A stretch of DNA of 64,000 nt from Phycisphaerae bacterium (GCA_029260055.1 JAJDDX010000382.1:2562-66561), one strand, 5' to 3'. Shown: positions 1,699 through 35,276, counted from the first letter of the stretch. The notes: generated from the sequence alone by a model not told the origin. Numbers and translations: made by a program.

Positions 1699-2802
1699 TT
1701 GTCGGCCAAACCAACCAAGTTCCTGTGCGTATGCGGCGCTCGGCCGAACTTCATGAAGATTGCGCCGATCATGGACGCCCTGGCGCGCGTCGACGGCGCC
1801 GAAACACGGCTGATCCACACGGGCCAACATTACGACGAGCGCATGAGCCGGCTCTTCTTCGATGAACTCGGCATCCCCAAGCCGCACATCAATCTCGATG
1901 TCGGCAGCGGATCGCACGCCAGTCAAACCGCCGAGATCATGAAACGCTTCGAGGCTGTCTGCACCGAGTTCGAGCCGGACTGGGTCATCGTGGTGGGGGA
2001 TGTGAACGGGACGATGGCGGCCGCGATCACCGCCGTCAAACTCGGCAGGAAGGTCGCCCATGTCGAGGCCGGGCTCCGCAGCTTCGATCGCACGATGCCG
2101 GAAGAAGTCAACCGCATCCTCACCGATTCGATCAGCGACGTGCTGTTCGCGACCGAGCCCAGCGGGGTCGAGAACCTTCAGCGTGAAGGCATGACCAACG
2201 GCAAGGTACACCTCGTCGGCAACGTCATGGTCGATACGCTCCTGCGGCATAAGTCCGCTGCCGCCGCTTCGACGATCCTCACGACCGTCGGCGTGAGCGC
2301 GAAAGCCTACGCCCTCGCGACCCTCCATCGGCCGAGCAACGTCGATAACCGCGAGACGCTGGTGTCCATCCTCGATGCTCTCGACGTGATCGCTGCGGAC
2401 ATGCCCGTCGTACTGCCCGTTCATCCCCGCACGAAGGAGAAGATCGACGCGTTCGGGCTCGCGGCGCGCGTTGACGCTTCGGCGGGCCTACGCATGATCG
2501 AGCCTTTGGGCTATCTCGACTTCTTGAAGCTGATGGACAACGCAGCCATTGTGCTGACGGATTCGGGTGGTATACAAGAGGAGACGACGGTCTTGGGTGT
2601 GCCCTGTTTGACGCTCCGTGAGAACACCGAGCGGCCCATCACCATCACGCAGGGCACGAACCGTCTCACCGGATCCAGCACGAATCGAATTCTTGAGGCG
2701 TATTCTGAGATGCGCCGCGATCCTCCGGCCGCCTGCGTCGTAGATATGTGGGACGGCAGGGCGGCTGAGCGGATCGTGCAGACACTACTGAATTGCCGAT
2801 GA
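1699..2802 (+). CDS. wecB: UDP-N-acetylglucosamine 2-epimerase (non-hydrolysing)
   Basis: Family signatures GARPNFMKIAP, HTGQHYD, GSGSHA.QTA and VAHVEAGLRSFDRTMPEEVNR. TTG start is preceded by GAGGAA at 1685-1690. Confidence 0.9.
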   Translation: MSAKPTKFLCVCGARPNFMKIAPIMDALARVDGAETRLIHTGQHYDERMSRLFFDELGIPKPHINLDVGSGSHASQTAEIMKRFEAVCTEFEPDWVIVVGDVNGTMAAAITAVKLGRKVAHVEAGLRSFDRTMPEEVNRILTDSISDVLFATEPSGVENLQREGMTNGKVHLVGNVMVDTLLRHKSAAAASTILTTVGVSAKAYALATLHRPSNVDNRETLVSILDALDVIAADMPVVLPVHPRTKEKIDAFGLAARVDASAGLRMIEPLGYLDFLKLMDNAAIVLTDSGGIQEETTVLGVPCLTLRENTERPITITQGTNRLTGSSTNRILEAYSEMRRDPPAACVVDMWDGRAAERIVQTLLNCR

Positions 2803-2845
2803 TGCGACGGGCCCGCCAAGCCGGTCGCGGGCCGGGAGAAGATCA

Positions 2846-4177
2846 ATGCGAATCGCTGTGGTAGGTACCGGGTACGTAGGACTAGTCACGGGCCCCTGTT
2901 TCGCCGAGAGCGGGAACCGAGTCATCTGCGTTGACGTGGATGAGCGGAAGATCCAGATGCTCCGCAACGGGGAGATTCCGATCTACGAGCCGGGGCTCGA
3001 GGAGATCGTGAAGCGCAACGCAGCCGCCAACCGCCTCTTTTTCACGACCGATCTGCCCAAGGCGATCAAGGACTCGCGAATCATCTTCCTGGCCGTCGGT
3101 ACACCACCGGCGGCGGACGGCTCAGCCGATCTCAGCGCCATCCTCGACGTGGCCGGCACCATTGGCCGCGTGATGGACGACTACCGCATCATCGTGATGA
3201 AGAGCACCGTGCCGGTCGGTACGCACAAGAAGGTCATGGAGGCGATCGCGCAGAACACCGACCATCCATTCGATTACGTCAGCAACCCCGAGTTCCTGAA
3301 AGAAGGGGCGGCGATCGACGACTTTACCAAGCCCGACCGCGTGGTGATCGGCGCGACGAACCCGGCGGTCGTCATGGTAATGAAGGAACTCTACGGGGCT
3401 TTCATGCGGCGTAGCGAGCGGATCTACGTCATGGACCCGGCTTCCGCGGAAATGACGAAGTACGCCGCCAATGCCATGCTCGCCACGCGCATCTCCTTCA
3501 TGAACGAGATATCAAACCTATGTGACCGCTTCGGCGCCGACGTGGAGTTGGTTCGCCGGGGTATCGGGTCGGATACACGTATTGGCAACGCGTTTCTTTT
3601 CCCCGGCGTGGGCTACGGTGGATCGTGCTTCCCGAAGGACGTCAGCGCCCTGGTAAAGATGGGCGAGTCGGTCGACTTCCCCGCGAGCATTGTCGAGGCG
3701 GTGCAGGAGGTCAATCAGCGGCAGCGCCGCATCTTCGCCCAGCGCGTGATCGACCACTTCGGCGACGACTGCAAGGGCAAGACGTTGGCCGTCTGGGGTT
3801 TGGCCTTCAAGGCGCGTACGGATGACGTACGCGAGTCACCCGCGATTGCCGCGATCGAGATGTTCCTGGAAAAGGGCATGAAGATCCGTGCACACGACCC
3901 CGAGGCCATGGGGACCGCAGCCGCGGCGCTCAAAGAGACCGGGCGGAAGGTCGACATGTGCGAGGACGGCTACGACTGCCTCGACGGCGCCGACGCGCTG
4001 GTGATCTTCACCGACTGGGGCACGTTCCGTACGCCGGACTTCGACCTCATGGCCGAGCGAATGCCGAACAAGCTGATCTTCGACGGAAGGAACATGTACG
4101 ACCCGGTGCTGCTCGCCAAGCGCGGCTTCACCTATGCAAGCATCGGCCGACCGACCCTGGAACCGAACGGGGCATAG
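2846..4177 (+). CDS. ugd: UDP-glucose/UDP-sugar 6-dehydrogenase
   Basis: N-terminal Rossmann motif MRIAVVGTGYVGLVTG, then IPIYEPGLE and the catalytic GGSCFPKD motif. 443 aa. Confidence 0.9.
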   Translation: MRIAVVGTGYVGLVTGPCFAESGNRVICVDVDERKIQMLRNGEIPIYEPGLEEIVKRNAAANRLFFTTDLPKAIKDSRIIFLAVGTPPAADGSADLSAILDVAGTIGRVMDDYRIIVMKSTVPVGTHKKVMEAIAQNTDHPFDYVSNPEFLKEGAAIDDFTKPDRVVIGATNPAVVMVMKELYGAFMRRSERIYVMDPASAEMTKYAANAMLATRISFMNEISNLCDRFGADVELVRRGIGSDTRIGNAFLFPGVGYGGSCFPKDVSALVKMGESVDFPASIVEAVQEVNQRQRRIFAQRVIDHFGDDCKGKTLAVWGLAFKARTDDVRESPAIAAIEMFLEKGMKIRAHDPEAMGTAAAALKETGRKVDMCEDGYDCLDGADALVIFTDWGTFRTPDFDLMAERMPNKLIFDGRNMYDPVLLAKRGFTYASIGRPTLEPNGA

Positions 4178-6320: not shown

Positions 6321-8225
6321 ATGTGTGGCATAGCGGGCATATTAGGGCACGCGGATTCTGATCGCCTCAGGGCGATGGCAGGCGCACTGTGCCACCGCGG
6401 CCCGGACGACGAGGGGTATTGGACCTCGCCCGACGGTGTCGTCGGACTAGCCCATCGCCGTCTGTCCATCATCGACCCCGAGTGCGGCCATCAGCCATTA
6501 GCCAATGAGGATGGGCAGGTCGTCACCGTCTTTAACGGTGCGATCTACAACTACCGCGAGTTGCGCGACGACCTGAGCAGCCGAGGCCACGTCTTTCGAA
6601 CGAGCAGCGACACCGAGACCATCGTTCATCTGTACGAAGAGGAAGGCGTCGACTTCGCCGCCAAGCTGCGCGGCATGTTCGCCATTGCATTGTGGGATGA
6701 ACGCGACCGGCAACTCGTGCTCGTGCGTGATCGTGTGGGGAAGAAGCCCCTCTATTACAGCGAAACGGCGAACGAGCTACTCTTCGCTTCCGAAATCAAG
6801 GCTATCGTAGCCGCCTTGGGCGGTGCGCCGGCGCTCGATGAGCAGGCATTGTCCGACTACCTGAGTTGGGGTGTGGTGCCGCAGCCGGCCACGATCTACC
6901 GTTCGATTCGATCCCTCATGCCGGGCGAGATGGCGGTCGTGCGTGATGGCCGCATCGTCCGGCGCAAGCGGTACTGGACGCAGCGCATGGAGCCGAAGGT
7001 CGCCGTCTCGCGCGAGGAGGCGGTGGAGAGGGCGGATGCGTGCCTGCAGGAGGCTGTCGCCCTGCGGCTTCGCTCGGACGTGCCGGTCGGCGCGTTCCTT
7101 TCGGGTGGAATCGACAGCGGCATCGTGACGGCGATGGCGGCGTCGCGTTACCCCGGCACGCTGACCACGGTGACCGTAGGGTTCGACGACGGCTCGTTCG
7201 ACGAGCGGCCGCTGGCGCGGCTCGTGGCTGATCGCTACGGCACGGAGCACCATGAGTTACTGGTGAAGCCCGATGTGGTCAACGATATCGAGACCATCGT
7301 CCGGGCGTACGATCAACCCTATGCCGACTCTTCCGCGATCCCCTCTTTCTACGTGGCTCGCGCCGCCAGGCAGTTCGTCAAGGTCGTGCTCAACGGCGAC
7401 GGCGGGGACGAGGTGTTCGCCGGCTACCGTCGTTACATCGCAGCGCGGCTGAGCGGGGTCCTTCAGGCGTTCGACGGAGAGGCTGATCGCACGGCTTGGA
7501 ACGTGTTGTCACGGTTGATGCCGATGCCACGGACGTTCCGGTCCGGATATGCTTTCGCGCACCGATTCGCGCGCGGCATGGCGCTTGATCCGGCGAGCCG
7601 CTTCATGGCATGGTCGCTCGACGGCTTCACCGAGGCGCGCAAACGCGAGCTGGCCGGGCGGAGCGCCTCGTGGCTCGATCGAGTCGAGTCGAGCGATCGG
7701 TTCGCGCAGGGCCTGCTGGGTGAACTTGCTACTGCAGGTCAGCTCGATCGCATGCTGGGGATCGACTTGGCCACCGTGCTGCCGTTCGACTTTCTGGTCA
7801 AGATGGATATTGCGTGCATGGCTCATGGGCTCGAGGCGCGGTCGCCGCTGTTGGATCAGGAACTCGTCGAAACCGTGTCGCGGTTCCCGGAAGCGATCAA
7901 ACTAGGCGGGACGGCGACCAAACCCATCCTGCGCGATCTGGCGGCTCGGTACGTGCCGGAGGCGGTGAGGGCGGCTCCCAAACGCGGCTTCGAAGTGCCG
8001 TTGCTGCGCTGGCTTCGCACCGACCTGCGCGGCCTCTCGCATGACGTGATCCTGTCGCGTGACGGGCTCCTGAGCCACTTGTTCGATCGCTCCGCACTCG
8101 AGCGATTCGTGAGATGCGAAGAAGGTCTAGACCCGGCGAGGTGGGCGCGTGGCGTCTGGACGCTGCTGACACTCGGCATGTGGGATCATGGCACTCGCAA
8201 GGTCGCCGCCGCACCGTTAGGATAG
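6321..8225 (+). CDS. asnB: Asparagine synthase (glutamine-hydrolysing)-like amidotransferase
   Basis: Starts MCGIAGILGH, the Ntn amidotransferase Cys2. Also has SDTE, SGGIDS (PP-loop) and LNGDGGDE motifs. The 164-codon upstream extension in the ORF track is the repeat array, not coding sequence. Confidence 0.85.
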   Translation: MCGIAGILGHADSDRLRAMAGALCHRGPDDEGYWTSPDGVVGLAHRRLSIIDPECGHQPLANEDGQVVTVFNGAIYNYRELRDDLSSRGHVFRTSSDTETIVHLYEEEGVDFAAKLRGMFAIALWDERDRQLVLVRDRVGKKPLYYSETANELLFASEIKAIVAALGGAPALDEQALSDYLSWGVVPQPATIYRSIRSLMPGEMAVVRDGRIVRRKRYWTQRMEPKVAVSREEAVERADACLQEAVALRLRSDVPVGAFLSGGIDSGIVTAMAASRYPGTLTTVTVGFDDGSFDERPLARLVADRYGTEHHELLVKPDVVNDIETIVRAYDQPYADSSAIPSFYVARAARQFVKVVLNGDGGDEVFAGYRRYIAARLSGVLQAFDGEADRTAWNVLSRLMPMPRTFRSGYAFAHRFARGMALDPASRFMAWSLDGFTEARKRELAGRSASWLDRVESSDRFAQGLLGELATAGQLDRMLGIDLATVLPFDFLVKMDIACMAHGLEARSPLLDQELVETVSRFPEAIKLGGTATKPILRDLAARYVPEAVRAAPKRGFEVPLLRWLRTDLRGLSHDVILSRDGLLSHLFDRSALERFVRCEEGLDPARWARGVWTLLTLGMWDHGTRKVAAAPLG

Positions 8226-13309: not shown

Positions 13310-13771
13310 TTAGCTCTCTCCGCCGACGTCGCGCCAGGTCGACAGATAGAAAAGCCGATCTTCCTCCGCCGTGTGTCGTCGGATCGTGGCGATAAGTTCC
13401 CGCACCTTCAGCACGAACACTTCGCCATCTTCCAGCGACCGGTCCGCCACGGACGCGGCGGTACGAATGATTCGATCGAGCGCGCCGAGAATCGCCGTGT
13501 GCTCGTCGGTCAAACGGCGGCGTTCCTCCGCGAACTCTGGTGACAGCGGCGCGGCATCCGGCGATGTGATCCAATCCCCGGCCTGATGGCTCCTGACGCG
13601 AGCGTGCAGACACGTGAGCTCGTCGCGAAGGGCATCGATGGCCGCGGCGTCGAGCGGCGCGTCGGCGGCAGCCCCATCGAGCTGCTCGTTGATGCGGACA
13701 AGCACGGAGGATATCGTCTCGCCGGGAGCTTGACGGTCCAGAGGGAGGCTTTCCGATGGTGTGGTTGACAT
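13310..13771 (-). CDS. Small helical protein, possibly a hemerythrin/HHE-type domain
   Basis: 153-aa ORF with spaced His/Glu pairs (LTDEHTAIL, RRHTAEEDRLFY). The functional assignment is weak. Confidence 0.4.
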   Translation of the reverse strand: MSTTPSESLPLDRQAPGETISSVLVRINEQLDGAAADAPLDAAAIDALRDELTCLHARVRSHQAGDWITSPDAAPLSPEFAEERRRLTDEHTAILGALDRIIRTAASVADRSLEDGEVFVLKVRELIATIRRHTAEEDRLFYLSTWRDVGGES

Positions 13772-13880: not shown

Positions 13881-14144
13881 GTTTGCGGCCCATGTGCCCG
13901 ATAACGCCGCCAAAAACGGACAAACACCCGTTTTCAGGTGTCACGACCCGTGCCGGAGTCGCCTGCGTCGATCCAACGCGGCCGTGCGGTCCCGGCGGCG
14001 ATGCGCGCGTGACCGGGCACGACCCGTTTGATCGCGAGCTGATGCGCGGCTAAGCTCGGCGCATGTGGCGGACATGCCTCTGGCACGTTCGGCTACCTGA
14101 GCCGGGCACTATTCACGGTATAGCGGGTATACGGAGAGCTACAC

Positions 14145-14495
14145 ATGGCCGGTAAGGTCGATTGGTACTATCACCGCAACGGGTGAACATCGTGCACCAA
14201 AGCGCAGGGGTTCCTTGCCAAGCACGACATCGGATCGAAAGAAACCGTCAGCGCGTCCGCCAAGCTCGGACGCGAGGATGCACTCGAGTTGGCCTCGAAT
14301 GCCTCCAGAGTCATCGTGGCCAAAGGGCGGAAGGTGACCACCTTCGATATGAAGAAGGAGCGACCCGACGATGCCACACTTCTGGCACATATGCTGGGTC
14401 CGACGGGCAACTTGCGCGCGCCGACCATCCGCAAGGGCAAGACCCTCCTGGTAGGCTTCGACGACGACACGTTTCGCGATGTCCTCCGCGTCTAG
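14145..14495 (+). CDS. ArsC/Spx/YffB-family thioredoxin-fold protein with an in-frame UGA (candidate selenocysteine, UxxC)
   Basis: ATG at 14145 is preceded by GGAGAG. The translation is MAGKVDWYYHRNG-[TGA 14184-14186]-TSCTKAQGFLAKHDI...LRAPTIRKGKTLLVGFDDDTFRDVL. The TGA sits where the family has the first Cys of its CxxC motif, and both flanks match the family in the same frame. Confidence 0.6.
14190..14227 (+). promoter_or_regulatory. SECIS-like stem-loop downstream of the in-frame UGA
   Basis: Lower stem UCGUGC/GCACGA (14190-14195 with 14222-14227). Upper stem GCAGGG/CCUUGC (14204-14209 with 14213-14218, including one G-U pair). Apical loop is GUU and starts 26 nt after the UGA. Confidence 0.4.
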
Positions 14496-14633: not shown

Positions 14634-15254
14634 ATGAAGTCTCCCGCGAAAAAGTGTCGCCGAGGGTGGTTTTGTGTTTGCAATTCCAATAGCGGCCACG
14701 GTATTTGCGCCACCGTGCCGGCCAACGTCTATGTCGACTTGCTCGGTCTTGCCGGCGGCGTGCGGGGACTGGCGCTGAGCGGGACGCAGACGTTCGACCC
14801 GATCAACAGCCCGCTCCACGCGGGCATCGACGGAATCGATGACCTGGAAGACCTGACCGCTCAGTTGGCGTCCTACCAGAACGCCAACGGGTCATGGTAC
14901 TGGAACTCAGACCTTCCCGGGCCGGCCGCTAGCGACGAGGACACACAGGTTTCGGCTTACGCGGTGCTCGCCCTGGTGGAGGCCGGCCGATGGACCGCCG
15001 CCGACTACACCGGCGCCATCGCGGACGGCAAGGCGTGGCTGCTCTCGATGCAACTGCCGGATGAGGCGTTCCTGAGCTATCCCGGCGGTGACGAGAACAC
15101 CGAGGTCGAAGGCGAGGCGCTATCGGCGATTGCGGCCGAGGTCGGGGACCCGGTCGGCATCCCGACGGTGTCCGAGTGGGGCCTGGTCGTCATGACGTTG
15201 TTGGGCTTCGCGGTTTCTACGGTCTTCTTTGGGCGTCGACGCCGAACAGCCTGA
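14634..15254 (+). CDS. Prenyltransferase/terpene-cyclase-repeat protein with an IPTL-CTERM-like sorting signal (possibly N-terminally truncated)
   Basis: Has QNANGSWYW and AYAVLAL repeat motifs. The C-terminus is IPTVSEWGLVVMTLLGFAVSTVFFGRRRR (motif, TM helix, basic tail). There is no recognisable signal peptide at the N-terminus. Confidence 0.55.
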   Translation: MKSPAKKCRRGWFCVCNSNSGHGICATVPANVYVDLLGLAGGVRGLALSGTQTFDPINSPLHAGIDGIDDLEDLTAQLASYQNANGSWYWNSDLPGPAASDEDTQVSAYAVLALVEAGRWTAADYTGAIADGKAWLLSMQLPDEAFLSYPGGDENTEVEGEALSAIAAEVGDPVGIPTVSEWGLVVMTLLGFAVSTVFFGRRRRTA

Positions 15255-15340: not shown

Positions 15341-16675
15341 CTAGCGACCCTCATGGAGTTTCTCGGCCGGGTAGAAGTCGTATCTCTTTTGGTCGGCTGA
15401 GTAAGTCAAGTATTCCCATCGCGACAGTTCGAGAAGGTCGCTTCGCGCCGTGGCGTAGGACACCGCGAACGTGCTCTGATGCTCGGCGATCGTGAAGACC
15501 CGATCCGGGTTTCGGGCACCCTGCACCACCACCTCTTGCTGCCTGTGGTTCAACCTCTTGTCTGCCCTGATCAGCTTGCGTGCGTCTGACAGTTGACGTT
15601 GCTTCTCTCTCATGAAGTCGCGCAGTTCTTGTCTTGCTCGCTTGATGATCTTGGTCTTGTACATCAAGAAATACGTAATATCGAACTCGTCCGTTTCGCA
15701 GTACAGGTAGGCTCGTGCATACCTCGATGGGCCGCGAATGATGAGCCGGGAGATGGGCAGATACTCGAACAGCCAATACCCCTGCCGCAGCATGGACCAG
15801 TAGAAGAGCGCCCTTGCGGTCCGTCCGTTTCCGTCACAGAACGGGTGGTCAAAACCGAGTTGGAAGTGAAGCACGCACGCCCTGATCACCGGATGGACGA
15901 ATTCCTTGGTGTCCGTCGGCTGATTGGCGAATTCGCACAGCCGCTCGATTCGCTTTTCCAATTCGGATGCGGGAGGTGGCACGTGCATGACAGTGCCGTC
16001 CCGGTCGTCGATCACACTGATGTCGTCTTCGTCGCGCCGAAAGCGACCCACGCCATCATCCCCATCGAGCGTGTCCTTCGTCAGGATCTCCTGCAGCTCC
16101 AGCAGGAAGTCTCTGGACAGCGGGGTCGCTCTGTGCTCACGGACGAACAGGATGGCGTGATAGTTGTTCACGACCATGCGTTCACCCCTGGTCTTCGGCT
16201 TGCGTCCGGACCTTAGGAGTTTCTTGGCGTCCCGCCGCGTAGTCACGGCCCCCTCCAGCATGCTTGACGCAATGGCCTCTTCGCGCAGGGCACCGAGGAT
16301 GAACCGCTCGCGCTGATGATGCGCAAGCGGGGCCTCGTCGTCGGACAAAAGCCGTCCTGCCGTCTGCTGGTCGATCAGCATGAGTTCATGCTGAACTTGA
16401 TCAGGGACGTTGAATCGCAGTAGATGGTCGTCGCTTCCGACCAACGGGAGGAAGCCGTAGCGTGGCATCCGGCTCATTTTGACCATGAACCACGCGAGTT
16501 CGGCGTCCACGCCGGCGGAACGGGCCGTCATTTTCACAAGGTCCCAAGGCCAATAGCCTGCCTCGCACCTCCGGGTGTACTCCGCAGAATCCTGACTGCT
16601 TATGGCCTCATTTAGGTCAGCCGCGCGGCGGCTAATCAGATCGTTGAAAGGCGGCGGTTGCTTCGGAATCCTCAT
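15341..16675 (-). CDS. fic: Fic-family protein (AMPylase-type) with an internal inhibitory motif and a C-terminal winged-helix domain
   Basis: Canonical Fic motif HPFCDGNGRTARAL. An upstream SSMLEG matches the [ST]xxxE[GN] inhibitory helix. The C-terminal region is wHTH-like. Sampled stretches of the gene (15601-15720) are 45-48% GC, well below the flanks. Confidence 0.85.
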   Translation of the reverse strand: MRIPKQPPPFNDLISRRAADLNEAISSQDSAEYTRRCEAGYWPWDLVKMTARSAGVDAELAWFMVKMSRMPRYGFLPLVGSDDHLLRFNVPDQVQHELMLIDQQTAGRLLSDDEAPLAHHQRERFILGALREEAIASSMLEGAVTTRRDAKKLLRSGRKPKTRGERMVVNNYHAILFVREHRATPLSRDFLLELQEILTKDTLDGDDGVGRFRRDEDDISVIDDRDGTVMHVPPPASELEKRIERLCEFANQPTDTKEFVHPVIRACVLHFQLGFDHPFCDGNGRTARALFYWSMLRQGYWLFEYLPISRLIIRGPSRYARAYLYCETDEFDITYFLMYKTKIIKRARQELRDFMREKQRQLSDARKLIRADKRLNHRQQEVVVQGARNPDRVFTIAEHQSTFAVSYATARSDLLELSRWEYLTYSADQKRYDFYPAEKLHEGR

Positions 16676-16766: not shown

Positions 16767-16892
16767 TGCGCTGTCGCAAAGTTATCGGACGGGTCGACCC
16801 CGGCCTGCGGAGCCGGCTGCAAACGGCCGAGCGCAAAGCGGCACTGGCTGCTTGTCACACCGCGCGAGACCGCGCAAGCTGCGGGCTGGGCA

Positions 16893-16911
16893 GGGGTGGA
16901 CACGCCACCCC
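16893..16911. repeat. Type B hairpin (GGGGTGGACACGCCACCCC)
   Basis: 7-bp stem GGGGTGG/CCACCCC. The core GGTGGACACGCCACC matches 6241-6255 (GGTGGACAAGCCACC) at 14 of 15 positions. Confidence 0.6.
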
Positions 16912-16935
16912 GGCCGGATTGGATCACTGATCGTC

Positions 16936-17553
16936 ATGACGCCAAGTGTCGGCAAGAAGAGTAAGCCGCCGCGAATCCCTCGGGGCGCGGGAGGCGGGGC
17001 CGGAAGCAGCCCGCGGAAGCCGGCGCGCAGGAACCCCCGCCGTGACGTGCTGCGATTCGTGCTAATCGTGGGTACGTCGATGGTGCTGTTCAACGTGCTC
17101 TTCTATGTCCGGCTAAGCGAGGACAGCGTGCTGGGGTCCTATCTCGCTCTGAACGCGCGTTTGTCAGCCGGTTTCGTGAACCTCTTCGGCGATCAGGCGA
17201 CCGTCACGGGCACGGCGATTCGCTCCGCCCGAGGGTCGTTGGAGGTCAGGCCCGGCTGCGATGGCATCCAGGCCTCGGCCTTCTTCATTTTCGCCGTGCT
17301 GGCCTCGCCCGCGCCACTGTCGCTGCTGGCGCGGATTCCGTCGATCCTGGCCGGGATGCTCCTGCTGCTCACGATCAATCTCGTTCGGATCATCAGTCTT
17401 TACTACACGCAGATTTACTTTCCGAGCGCTTTCGAGGTCATGCACGTGGAGGTCTGGCAGGCGGTCTTCATATTCCTGCCGATCGTGTTTTGGGTCGTTT
17501 GGCTGCGATGGGCACAGCGGGGGCGCGGACGCAAAGCCGATGTTGCCAAGTAG
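16936..17553 (+). CDS. Exosortase-family integral membrane transpeptidase (XrtH-like)
   Basis: About 205 aa and polytopic. Exosortase catalytic contexts are present: RPGCDGIQ (Cys), INLVRII (Asn..Arg) and EVMHVEVW (His). I chose the ATG at 16936 as the start. Confidence 0.65.
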   Translation: MTPSVGKKSKPPRIPRGAGGGAGSSPRKPARRNPRRDVLRFVLIVGTSMVLFNVLFYVRLSEDSVLGSYLALNARLSAGFVNLFGDQATVTGTAIRSARGSLEVRPGCDGIQASAFFIFAVLASPAPLSLLARIPSILAGMLLLLTINLVRIISLYYTQIYFPSAFEVMHVEVWQAVFIFLPIVFWVVWLRWAQRGRGRKADVAK

Positions 17554-18163
17554 ACACCTAGTCGGATTCGTCGTGCGGCTGGCAATCCTCTACGGCCTGC
17601 TGGCAGCGCCTTGGCCGGGCCTTCGCGAAGCGTACGCGCGCTTATACTGCGGTACGACCAACGCGCTTTTTGGCGCTTTCGGGGCAAAGGGCGTAGTGCA
17701 GCTCCGTTCGGTCGATAGCGGCGGCGGCAATATGGATTGTGAGATTTCCATTCGCAATCGCTCATCGTCGGTGGTCGGCACGACGCAGCACAGCGCCCGG
17801 ATTACCGGTTACTTGCCGATGGCCACGACCGTGGCGCTGGTCCTGGCCACGCCGCTGACTTGGCGGAGACGGCTGCGGGCGCTGGCGTGGAGCGTGTTCT
17901 GGATTACGCTCTTTATTCTCTTTCGCACGTGGCTCACCTTACTGTACTGGTTCTGTGCCGACGGCGCGTGGCACATCTACGAGCCTTCCGCGCTGTGGCG
18001 CGGCGTCATGAACACCGTATACGAGTTCACCGCGGTGGCGCCGACGTGCACGTTCCTCATCCCCGCACTGATCTGGATAGCTGTGGCGTTTCGTCGCGAG
18101 GCGGGCGGCGTCATCTCGTTGTGGCAGGGTGGGGAGTCGAATGAGGAAGCGACGGCGCGGTGA
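17540..18163 (+). CDS. Exosortase-associated membrane protein (function unknown)
   Basis: 207-aa product with several TM helices. Its ATG at 17540 overlaps the exosortase stop by 14 nt, which suggests translational coupling. The longer ORF-track version (from 17261) is an out-of-frame overlap with the exosortase. Confidence 0.5.
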   Translation: MLPSRHLVGFVVRLAILYGLLAAPWPGLREAYARLYCGTTNALFGAFGAKGVVQLRSVDSGGGNMDCEISIRNRSSSVVGTTQHSARITGYLPMATTVALVLATPLTWRRRLRALAWSVFWITLFILFRTWLTLLYWFCADGAWHIYEPSALWRGVMNTVYEFTAVAPTCTFLIPALIWIAVAFRREAGGVISLWQGGESNEEATAR

Positions 18164-20744: not shown

Positions 20745-20817
20745 GCTGCTGTGGCTCAGTTGGTAGAGCACGTCCTTGGTAAGGACGAGGTCATGGGTTC
20801 GAGTCCCATCAGCAGCT
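20745..20817 (+). tRNA. tRNA-Thr (anticodon GGU)
   Basis: Hand-folded cloverleaf: acceptor GCTGCTG/CAGCAGC, anticodon stem CGTCC/GGACG, loop TTGGTAA, T-loop TTCGAGT. CCA is not encoded. Confidence 0.9.
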
Positions 20818-20967
20818 TTGCTACTGAAGCGAATGGCGAAGCCCCGGCATCGCGTGCCGGCGCTCTCCCGTAGTGCCGCGATGTCGACAAGGCCCGGTGG
20901 CTAGGCGGAATATTGGATTCTTAGGCTCGATAGTAATTGGCGTCGAGCGAGTGGAGGTACGGACCGG

Positions 20968-22170
20968 ATGGCTAAGGAAGTATTCGAGCGAACAAAGACG
21001 CACGTGAACGTCGGGACGATCGGCCACGTCGACCACGGCAAGACGACGCTGACCGCTGCGATCACCGCAGCGCAGGCTGCCAAGGGCCTGGCCAAGTTCC
21101 GGGGCTATGACGATGTCGCCAAGGCGTCGGAGTCGCAGGGACGGCGCGACTCGACGAAGATTCTCACCATCGCGACTTCGCATGTGGAGTACGAAAGCGA
21201 GAAGAGGCACTACGCGCATATCGACTGCCCTGGGCACGCCGACTATGTCAAGAACATGATCACCGGTGCCGCGCAGATGGACGGCGCGATCCTGGTCGTG
21301 TCGGCCGCCGACGGCCCGATGCCCCAGACCCGTGAGCACATCCTGCTCGCGCGTCAGGTGAACGTGCCTCACCTGGTCGTCTTCCTCAACAAAGTGGACC
21401 TGGTCGACGATGAGGAACTCTTGGATCTCGTCGAGCTGGAAGTCCGCGAGTTGATGACCAAGTACGGATTCGCCGGGGACGACATCTCGGTCGTACGAGG
21501 ATCGTCTCTGCCCGCGCTCAATGACCCGAAGGACGAAGAGAAGACCAAGTGTATTCAGGAGCTGATGGACGCACTGGATACCGACATTCCGGATCCCGAG
21601 CGTGACGTGGACCAGCCCTTCTTGATGTCCGTCGAGGACGTATTCAGCATCAAGGGGCGTGGCACGGTCGCGACGGGGCGCATCGAGCGCGGCAAGGTCG
21701 TGATGGGCGAGACGATCGAGATCGTCGGTCTCACCGATACCCAGAAGACGGTCTGCACGGGCGTCGAGATGTTCAACAAGACGTTGGACTCCGGCGAGGC
21801 CGGCGACAATGTCGGATGCCTGCTCCGCGGCGTCGACAAGGACAAGATCGAGCGTGGCCAGGTGCTTGCCGCACCGGGGTCGATCACGCCGCATACGAAA
21901 TTCGAGTCTCAGGTCTACGTGCTGACGCAGGAAGAGGGTGGGCGCCATACGCCGTTCTTTAACGGCTATCGTCCGCAATTCTACTTCCGTACGACGGACG
22001 TGACCGGTGCGCTGGAGCTTCAGGGTGCTGAGATGTGCATGCCCGGCGACAACGTCGAGATGGTCGTCACGCTGGGTAAGCCGATCGCGATGGAGCAGGG
22101 CCTGCGTTTCGCGGTTCGCGAGGGCGGCCGGACCGTCGGGTCGGGCGTGGTAATTAAGGTAATCGAATAG
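20968..22170 (+). CDS. tuf: Elongation factor Tu
   Basis: [18 protein letters not shown] and NKVD G-motifs. 400 aa. Confidence 0.98.
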
Positions 22171-22209
22171 CGGATTTGTCGCAGCGGCAACTGGCGGAAG
22201 TAAGAGACC

Positions 22210-22377
22210 ATGGCAAAAGCGGCAAAGCGCGAATACGTGTGGTTGCAGTGCAAGGAATGCAAGGACCTGAACTATCGCACGAGTGTGAATGTTCAGGGCG
22301 GTGTTCCGAAGCTTGAACTGTCGAAGTTCTGTAAGCGTGAGCGCAAGCGGACCACGCACAAGATCAAGCGGAAGTAA
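22210..22377 (+). CDS. rpmG: 50S ribosomal protein L33
   Basis: 55-aa ORF MAKAAKREYVWLQCKECKDLNYRTSVNVQGGVPKLELSKFCKRERKRTTHKIKRK. It is too short to appear in the ORF track. It occupies the canonical position between tuf and tRNA-Trp. Confidence 0.85.
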   Translation: MAKAAKREYVWLQCKECKDLNYRTSVNVQGGVPKLELSKFCKRERKRTTHKIKRK

Positions 22378-22411
22378 GTCCTGATCGTCGGTGGCGGTAG
22401 CTGCCTGCTTG

Positions 22412-22485
22412 AGGAGCGTAGCTCAATTTGGCAGAGCACCGGTTTCCAAAACCGGCGGTTGTGGGTTCGAGTCCCTCCGCTCCTG
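22412..22485 (+). tRNA. tRNA-Trp (anticodon CCA)
   Basis: Acceptor AGGAGCG/CGCTCCT, anticodon stem CCGGT/ACCGG, loop TTCCAAA. There is one U-U mismatch in the T stem. It occupies the canonical position before secE. Confidence 0.85.
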
Positions 22486-26185: not shown

Positions 26186-26405
26186 TCTTGAACGTCGGAA
26201 TATACGCCACGGGTCGCGGTTCCGACGTTACATACATGTCCGCCGCGAAGCGGGAACGACCGGCAATGTAGCGGGACAGCCGGTCCACCGGATGCTTCGC
26301 CGGCAGATCACGTTGTCCCCTGGCTTTGGAAAGATGCGGTCGGCGGCGGTACGTCCAGCGTGCGCCGTGTGGTCCGATTGAGCCGTCACCCTAAGGGACT
26401 TGCTG

Positions 26406-30179
<3,774 letters not shown>

Positions 30180-30732: not shown

Positions 30733-30830
30733 GTCGGACAGCGGTTCCGACGGGCTTTCGAGCCGGCGCCGATGCCGTGCTTCTGGGTTCTTAAGAGCAT
30801 CACTGGTTCCGAAAAGGGGACGCAAGGCCG

Positions 30831-35276
<4,446 letters not shown>

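Follow-up and report, generated by a model that had tools for sequence, protein, structure and literature searches.

A very probable selenocysteine codon in a small ArsC-family (seleno)protein gene, marked by a conserved hairpin

Can a short gene that meets an in-frame TGA after its first 13 codons still give rise to a full-length protein? The question is raised by a locus in a 64,000-nt stretch of DNA (the window, by which we mean that whole stretch), where a mechanical list of open reading frames (ORFs) gives only a TTG-initiated tail of 68 aa at 14289-14495, just as a preliminary description of the locus had reported. That description placed the true start at an upstream ATG, assigned the product to the ArsC/Spx/YffB group of thioredoxin-fold proteins, and proposed that the TGA, falling on the first Cys of a CxxC motif, is read as selenocysteine (Sec) with the help of a stem-loop that follows it. 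From the comparison with relatives set out below, we consider it very probable that 14145-14495 encodes a protein of the NCBIfam family NF041106 in which UGA-14 is recoded as Sec by the standard bacterial route, by way of a hairpin inside the gene.

Gene structure and family membership

When the sequence was re-read and translated, the coordinates, the GGAGAG, the ATG at 14145, the TGA, the frame and the end of the gene were all found to be as first described (Table 1). The 13 codons from the ATG up to the TGA, MAGKVDWYYHRNG, are followed in the same frame by 102 codons, TSCTKAQGFLAKHDI...FRDVLRV, which lead up to a TAG at 14493-14495, making 116 codons when the UGA is counted. The earlier statement that ORF calling had missed the gene is true solely of naive ORF calling and not of annotation generally, because curated annotation models of the family exist. 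The correct annotation is one 116-codon coding sequence with a Sec exception in place of the 68-aa fragment, and this annotation fix is the chief practical value of the finding, which adds little biologically.

Table 1. Features of the ArsC-family (seleno)protein locus, in window coordinates
Feature	Position	Strand	Basis and remarks
Shine-Dalgarno-like GGAGAG	14133-14138	+	Read from the sequence; start codon 6 nt downstream
Complete ArsC-family (seleno)protein gene	14145-14495	+	Translation; NF041106; PF03960; 2303 database homologues
N-terminal 13 codons before the UGA, DWYYHRNG, predicted beta-strand 1	14145-14183	+	Protein-level constraint
In-frame UGA, inferred Sec codon, first position of UxxC (U14-T-S-C17)	14184-14186	+	Homologue alignment
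Conserved SECIS core, upper stem with apical GUU loop (14210-14212)	14202-14220	+	Pairing, covariation, covariance model
Full hairpin; lower stem 14190-14195/14222-14227 present here, without conservation	14190-14227	+	RNAfold minimum free energy structure

With Sec entered as Cys for protein profile scoring, the product scores 135 bits (E 1.4e-39; cutoff 85) with NF041106 (ArsC_rel_Se_1, 'ArsC family (seleno)protein'), and the match spans profile positions 1-107 of 107, which bears out the thioredoxin-fold assignment made at the outset. The match to Pfam ArsC (PF03960) is marginal, at 25.2 bits versus a gathering threshold of 24 (E 2e-5). The NCBI product name of NF041106 already reads '(seleno)protein', and several database matches bear that name. 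The window gene resembles the family in its full-length match, its size of ~116 aa, its UxxC motif and its character as a stand-alone small gene; Sec and Cys forms are mixed within this one family, and there is no substantive difference between it and the window gene.

The prediction of ArsC-like selenoproteins from bacterial genomes dates from 2006 (PMC1794560), and the GOS survey described both a family 'Arsenate reductase (ArsC) 1' with UxxS and a family 'Arsenate reductase 2 (cd03032)' with UxxC, the latter comprising 42 Sec and 238 Cys sequences (PMC2398784). A 2022 review includes 'Arsenate reductase-like protein, COG1393, UxxC' among the predicted families, outside the 16 that are experimentally verified (PMC9312934). 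The preliminary description was therefore correct in stating that surveys had predicted Sec-containing ArsC-like proteins. Matched by motif and domain labels, NF041106 is probably the same family as 'Arsenate reductase 2' of the GOS survey and the 'Arsenate reductase-like protein' of the review. We found no report in the literature of Sec incorporation or activity for any family member. The window gene is thus a further member of a selenoprotein family that has already been predicted and HMM-curated, and its novelty is low; the family itself is widespread, and Sec-dominant among the closest genome loci.

Conservation of the UGA codon and of the hairpin

A protein database search returned 2303 homologues. 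Among the top 120 of these, 43 are full-length proteins with CxxC (for example HRNGCTTC), with whose first Cys the window UGA aligns, and 74 are N-terminally truncated gene calls that start at or after the UGA position, which is the gene-caller behaviour expected on a selenoprotein gene. The remaining three full-length records in the top 120 have Ser (P0004 and P0106) or Trp (P0119) at the Sec/Cys position, and these may be translations under other genetic codes or true substitutions.

Among GTDB species-representative genomes a scan picked up 593 relatives, of which the best 80 loci were taken for analysis, the closest being 69% identical to the window protein. They come from Planctomycetota/Phycisphaerae, Acidobacteriota, Eisenbacteria, Myxococcota, Zixibacteria, Chloroflexota, KSB1, some Proteobacteria and others. 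A comparison of orthologues at the TGA had been proposed in the preliminary description, and it supports the placement of this codon at the first Cys of CxxC: at the position that corresponds to 14184-14186, 76 of these best 80 loci have TGA and the other 4 have TGC or TGT, with the reading frame intact on both sides of it in all 80. Three of the loci (L025, L034 and L079) are UxxS variants that keep the TGA and have Ser for the resolving Cys, which recalls the 'ArsC 1 UxxS' group of the GOS survey.

The DWYYHRxG motif before the TGA is kept at the protein level across relatives. Every one of the 77 Sec-form sequences has its W, Y and R, in spite of synonymous variation in the codons used for them (TAC/TAT; CGC/CGG/CGA/CGT/AGG), so that the first 13 codons must be translated in one frame with the remainder. 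Column heterozygosity of the upstream codons in the same 77 sequences is 0.21, 0.16 and 0.43 at positions 1, 2 and 3, so that third positions are the most variable and the N-terminal 13 codons prove to be conserved in orthologues, as the proposal of a single gene had implied. Judging from this alignment, the codons upstream of the UGA are under protein-level purifying selection.

In the window, RNAfold predicts a hairpin with a lower stem (14190-14195/14222-14227), an upper stem (14204-14209/14213-14218 plus the pair G14202-C14219) and a GUU loop, whose G14210 lies 26 nt from the U of the UGA (+27 with that U counted as 1). Its energy of -13.5 kcal/mol falls within the range of shuffled sequences (z = -0.68; 44 of 200 shuffles of this 63% G+C DNA fold equally well), and the hairpin is therefore by itself no evidence, its significance coming from the relatives alone. 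The 57 nt from the UGA onwards could be aligned without gaps in 77 Sec-form genes (76 loci and the window). In 73 of the 77 the UGA is followed, at constant spacing, by a stem of 6-8 bp whose apical loop contains G27-U28-U29, numbered from the U of the UGA as 1. Class 1 (54 sequences including the window; RNA GCGCAGGGGUUCCUUGCG, peptide AQGFLA) closes a GUU triloop with a helix of columns 19-26 and 30-37. Class 2 (19 sequences; RNA GCGUCCAAGUUYCUGGACGC, peptide ASKFLD) has a 7-bp stem shifted by 1 nt and the loop AGUUYC; its loci are L018, L030-L032, L035, L036, L039, L047, L050, L054, L060, L062, L064, L068-L070, L074, L076 and L077.

The upper helix of class 1 is paired in 92% of cells and has double-sided changes at 4 of its 8 pairs, so that the conserved hairpin looked for in orthologues is present and covaries. 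Pair 26/30 is G-C in 36, A-U in 16 and mismatched in 2 of the 54 class-1 sequences, the change of Gly GGG to Glu GAG being accompanied by a synonymous change of the partner, Phe TTC to TTT; pair 21/35 is G-C in 45, U-A in 7 and A-U in 1. The covariation score is greater than those of all 500 shuffles and of all slid registers, and two synonymous sites in the class-1 stem are frozen, with Leu encoded by CTT in 53 of 54 cases and Gly by GGG in 36 of 36. The lower helix is paired in just 55% of cells across relatives and is accordingly not counted in the conserved element. Of the stem-loop originally described at 14190-14227, then, the geometry, the GUU loop and the conserved upper stem stand, and the lower stem does not. 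The upper stem of the window has one C-C mismatch, at pair 20/36, a pair that is likewise absent in 8 of 54 class-1 relatives.

A covariance model of the UGA region, another of the checks suggested earlier, was built from the 53 other class-1 sequences with the window left out; its match to 14184-14225 scored 54.6 bits (E 8e-15), the second best in the 64 kb reaching 13.2 bits. This second match (17896-17936, minus strand) has no leading TGA and no comparable hairpin, lies antisense to the long plus-strand ORF 17261-18163, and was dismissed as chance. Rfam, searched over 14100-14320 with permissive thresholds, gave no SECIS family and two weak antisense chance matches (E at least 2).

Cys-form homologue genes served as the control set. 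In their QGFL-encoding subset (n = 7), the Gly codon is GGG in 3 of 7 (Fisher p = 3e-4) and the Leu codon CTT in 4 of 7 (p = 0.004), and the hairpins of these Cys forms are weaker than those of Sec forms, the medians being -8.9 and -11.2 kcal/mol, respectively (Mann-Whitney p = 0.004). A near-perfect SECIS-like hairpin, for example GCUCAGGGGUUCCUUGAG, is retained in three Cys forms (L084, L088 and L089) and is probably a 'fossil' SECIS that has outlasted a recent exchange of Sec for Cys; from other Cys forms the hairpin is gone. With its two registers, its frozen synonymous sites and the 'fossil' hairpins of the Cys forms, the comparative set is a ready SECIS model for the family. It is also a case of dual coding, in which the RNA stem limits the choice of helix-1 residues (AQGFLA or ASKFLD) and is in turn limited by it.

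Like the E. coli fdhF-type SECIS and the bSECISearch consensus, the element is a coding-sequence hairpin directly 3' of the UGA with an apical G/U at a fixed distance. In E. coli fdhF, the loop nucleotides G23 and U24 are the SelB determinants; the GU of the window SECIS, at +27/+28 versus +23/+24, lies 4 nt further downstream. The family also differs in having two registers (a GUU triloop on 7-8 bp, and AGUUYC on 7 bp) within one family, and has no Rfam model.

Sec machinery and the reading of the UGA codon

Searching the 64-kb window by tBLASTn with E. coli SelA, SelB and SelD found no selA, selB or selD, the sole match being an EF-Tu at 21010-22020 with the SelB query, and no tRNA-Sec is present among the three tRNAs there (Thr, Trp and Leu). 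For Planctomycetes, full sets of the genes for Sec insertion are on record (PMC4807772). Among the relatives, a Phycisphaerales MAG (L020) carries a tRNA-Sec at 6511-6605 on the minus strand, 3.4 kb from the ArsC-like gene (ARAGORN; Rfam 70.3 bits), and a Zixibacteria chromosome (L079) carries a selD at 2411-3439, ~6.6 kb from the ArsC-like gene and 40% identical to E. coli SelD. In the flanks of the 80 relatives searched, L060 gave a weak match to the selA query (E 5e-4, 26% identity over 118 aa). A 97-nt 'tRNA-Thr (agt)' called by ARAGORN directly after the ArsC-like gene of L031 (10355-10451) is repeat-like and without Rfam support, and is probably a false positive.

In the recoding that we propose, SelB-GTP with Sec-tRNA(Sec) would bind the GU in the apical loop of the coding-sequence hairpin just 3' of the UGA, this GU lying 26-28 nt from the U of the UGA, and would deliver Sec to the ribosome at UGA-14 in competition with release factor 2. 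That Sec is actually inserted at this codon is what we infer from the comparative record, and two other readings were weighed against it. The gene could be a pseudogene in which a Cys codon (TGC or TGT) has mutated to TGA, so that fragments or nothing would be made and the hairpin would be coincidental; TGA is one substitution away from either codon, the hairpin energy is unexceptional by its z score, and Sec machinery was not found in the 64-kb window. Such decay is exceedingly improbable, however, in view of a TGA that recurs with intact frames at 76 of the best 80 loci and in many phyla, of upstream codons that appear to be under purifying selection, and of a hairpin that covaries and is relaxed in Cys forms; all residues that are invariant in a 30-sequence alignment (A1) are also present in the window protein, which is so by construction. 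We hold it to be very improbable, too, that the UGA is read through without Sec by a near-cognate Trp or Cys tRNA, or is reassigned as in genetic codes 4 or 25. The Trp and Ser recorded at this position in P0119, P0004 and P0106 would fit such a reading, and the support for Sec here is comparative rather than chemical. Against it, TGA serves as an ordinary stop at the end of 14 of the window's 39 long ORFs, among them that of 1265 codons at 26382-30179, which excludes a genome-wide reassignment of UGA; the conserved hairpin, with its constant spacing from the UGA and its loop GU, bears the bacterial SECIS signature known from E. coli fdhF; and either tRNA-Sec (L020) or selD (L079) lies near the gene in relatives.

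Further selenoprotein candidates were sought by joining ORFs across TGA codons in the window with GC3 as the coding measure, and nothing convincing was found besides the codon at 14184, GC3 having no power to discriminate frames in this window.

Fold, function and gene neighbourhood

A PDB-sequence profile search placed Spx first (3l78, E 2e-7), followed by 2m46, a 'putative arsenate reductase', and YffB, and aligned the C/UxxC of the family with the CxxC of Spx (CTSCRKA). For the Cys homologue P0001, which is 65% identical to the window protein, the AlphaFold model has a pLDDT of 92.3, and Foldseek with this model gave Spx and YffB as the nearest solved structures, with ArsC-related structures also matched. 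The likeness of the model to Spx and YffB is loose (TM 0.5-0.58, rmsd 6-8 A; for the Spx structure 6gho, E 2.7e-4 and TM 0.55). The product of 14145-14495 is a 115-116-residue thioredoxin-fold protein on a distinct branch of the ArsC/Spx/YffB superfamily; it is not Spx, and no arsenate reductase activity is demonstrated for it. Its U14-x-x-C17 redox centre would lie at the N-terminus of helix 1, adjoining an invariant LRAP loop that we take to be the cis-Pro loop of the thioredoxin fold, and the protein would most likely alternate between selenol/thiol and selenenylsulfide forms, in the role of a small oxidoreductase or of a sensor of redox state. The biochemical function that we infer is that of a thioredoxin-fold selenol/thiol oxidoreductase.

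R773-type ArsC and YffB share with the window protein both PF03960 membership and a thioredoxin-like fold. R773 ArsC has a single catalytic Cys; unlike it, the window protein has a dithiol-type UxxC, a CxxC/UxxC motif of the Spx kind, and among solved structures Spx and YffB, not R773-type ArsC, stand closest to it. None of its 10 NCBIfam matches (E up to 1) is to an ArsC-named model, and no ars neighbours were found: an arsenic-resistance family is present in 0 of the 8 neighbouring ORFs scanned (which encode hemerythrin-like, IPTL-CTERM, HtrA, Fic, HAD and exosortase proteins) and is absent among the recurrent upstream-neighbour families of the relatives. A true arsenate reductase with Sec for its catalytic Cys is consequently unlikely, even though the Pfam ArsC match and the label that such sequences bear in the literature (PMC2398784, PMC9312934) both speak for one. 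The best matches in sequence (3l78) and in structure (6gho) would instead point to a redox-sensing transcription factor like Spx, which would bind the C-terminal domain of RNA polymerase alpha and carry a Sec-based switch. The superfamily fold is the same, UTSCTKA of the window protein aligns with CTSCRKA so that UxxC meets C10-x-x-C13 of Spx, and the conserved R-x-P loop is aligned too. Such a regulator nevertheless seems quite unlikely, with all scores below the curated Spx cutoffs (Spx/MgsR TIGR01617, 28.5 bits vs 75; Spx NF002459, 31.1 vs 123; Spx equivalogs together, 19-31 vs 123-159) and a structural match that is loose (TM ~0.55, rmsd 6-8 A). Spx is a CxxC redox-switch regulator of Bacillus subtilis and other Firmicutes, whereas the window protein very probably has Sec in place of Cys, and its family occurs in other phyla.

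As for what a selenol/thiol oxidoreductase might act on, no family-wide conserved gene neighbourhood was found across 81-87 loci, which leaves no substrate pointer from this side. The order HAD hydrolase, HtrA, hemerythrin-like (minus strand) and ArsC-like (plus strand) is common to the window and L001, L003, L006, L009 and L023, and this synteny places the window among Phycisphaerae-like planctomycetes. The divergent upstream gene of the window (13310-13771, minus strand) encodes a hemerythrin-HHE protein and is also found in four close relatives; the hemerythrin-linked loci are L001, L003, L006, L009 and, with the hemerythrin at ~3 kb, L023. The same position is taken by a 149-aa globin in eight other close relatives that include Sec and Cys forms (L002, L004, L010, L011, L085-L087 and L089). 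That this position can be filled from either of two unrelated families of O2/NO-binding proteins is a hint of a functional link in the planctomycete subset, not family-wide. No conserved intergenic motif common to the window and its hemerythrin-linked relatives was found. One tentative suggestion, which we regard as unlikely, is that in the Phycisphaerae/Planctomycetaceae subset the selenoprotein is the dedicated reductant of its O2/NO-binding neighbour, a partner in an O2/NO-stress module, or a Spx-like Sec regulator; if true, either role would be the first specific physiological role for the ArsC-like selenoprotein family.

Downstream of the gene, 14634-15254 (plus strand), 16852-17553 (plus strand) and 15341-16675 (minus strand) encode an IPTL-CTERM-like protein, an exosortase EpsH-like membrane protein and a Fic/DOC protein, the IPTL-CTERM sorting-signal match being weak (19.2 bits, just below the cutoff of 20.8). 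Elsewhere in the window, 1248-1294 on the minus strand matches the Rfam Acido-Lenti-1 sRNA (38.7 bits versus a gathering threshold of 37), and 20745-22485 holds a tRNA-Thr, an EF-Tu-like ORF and a tRNA-Trp in an ordinary housekeeping context. Further downstream of the EF-Tu-like ORF lie the long ORFs 26382-30179 and 30795-35276 (1493 codons), which we take, from their size and position, to be putative rpoB and rpoC.
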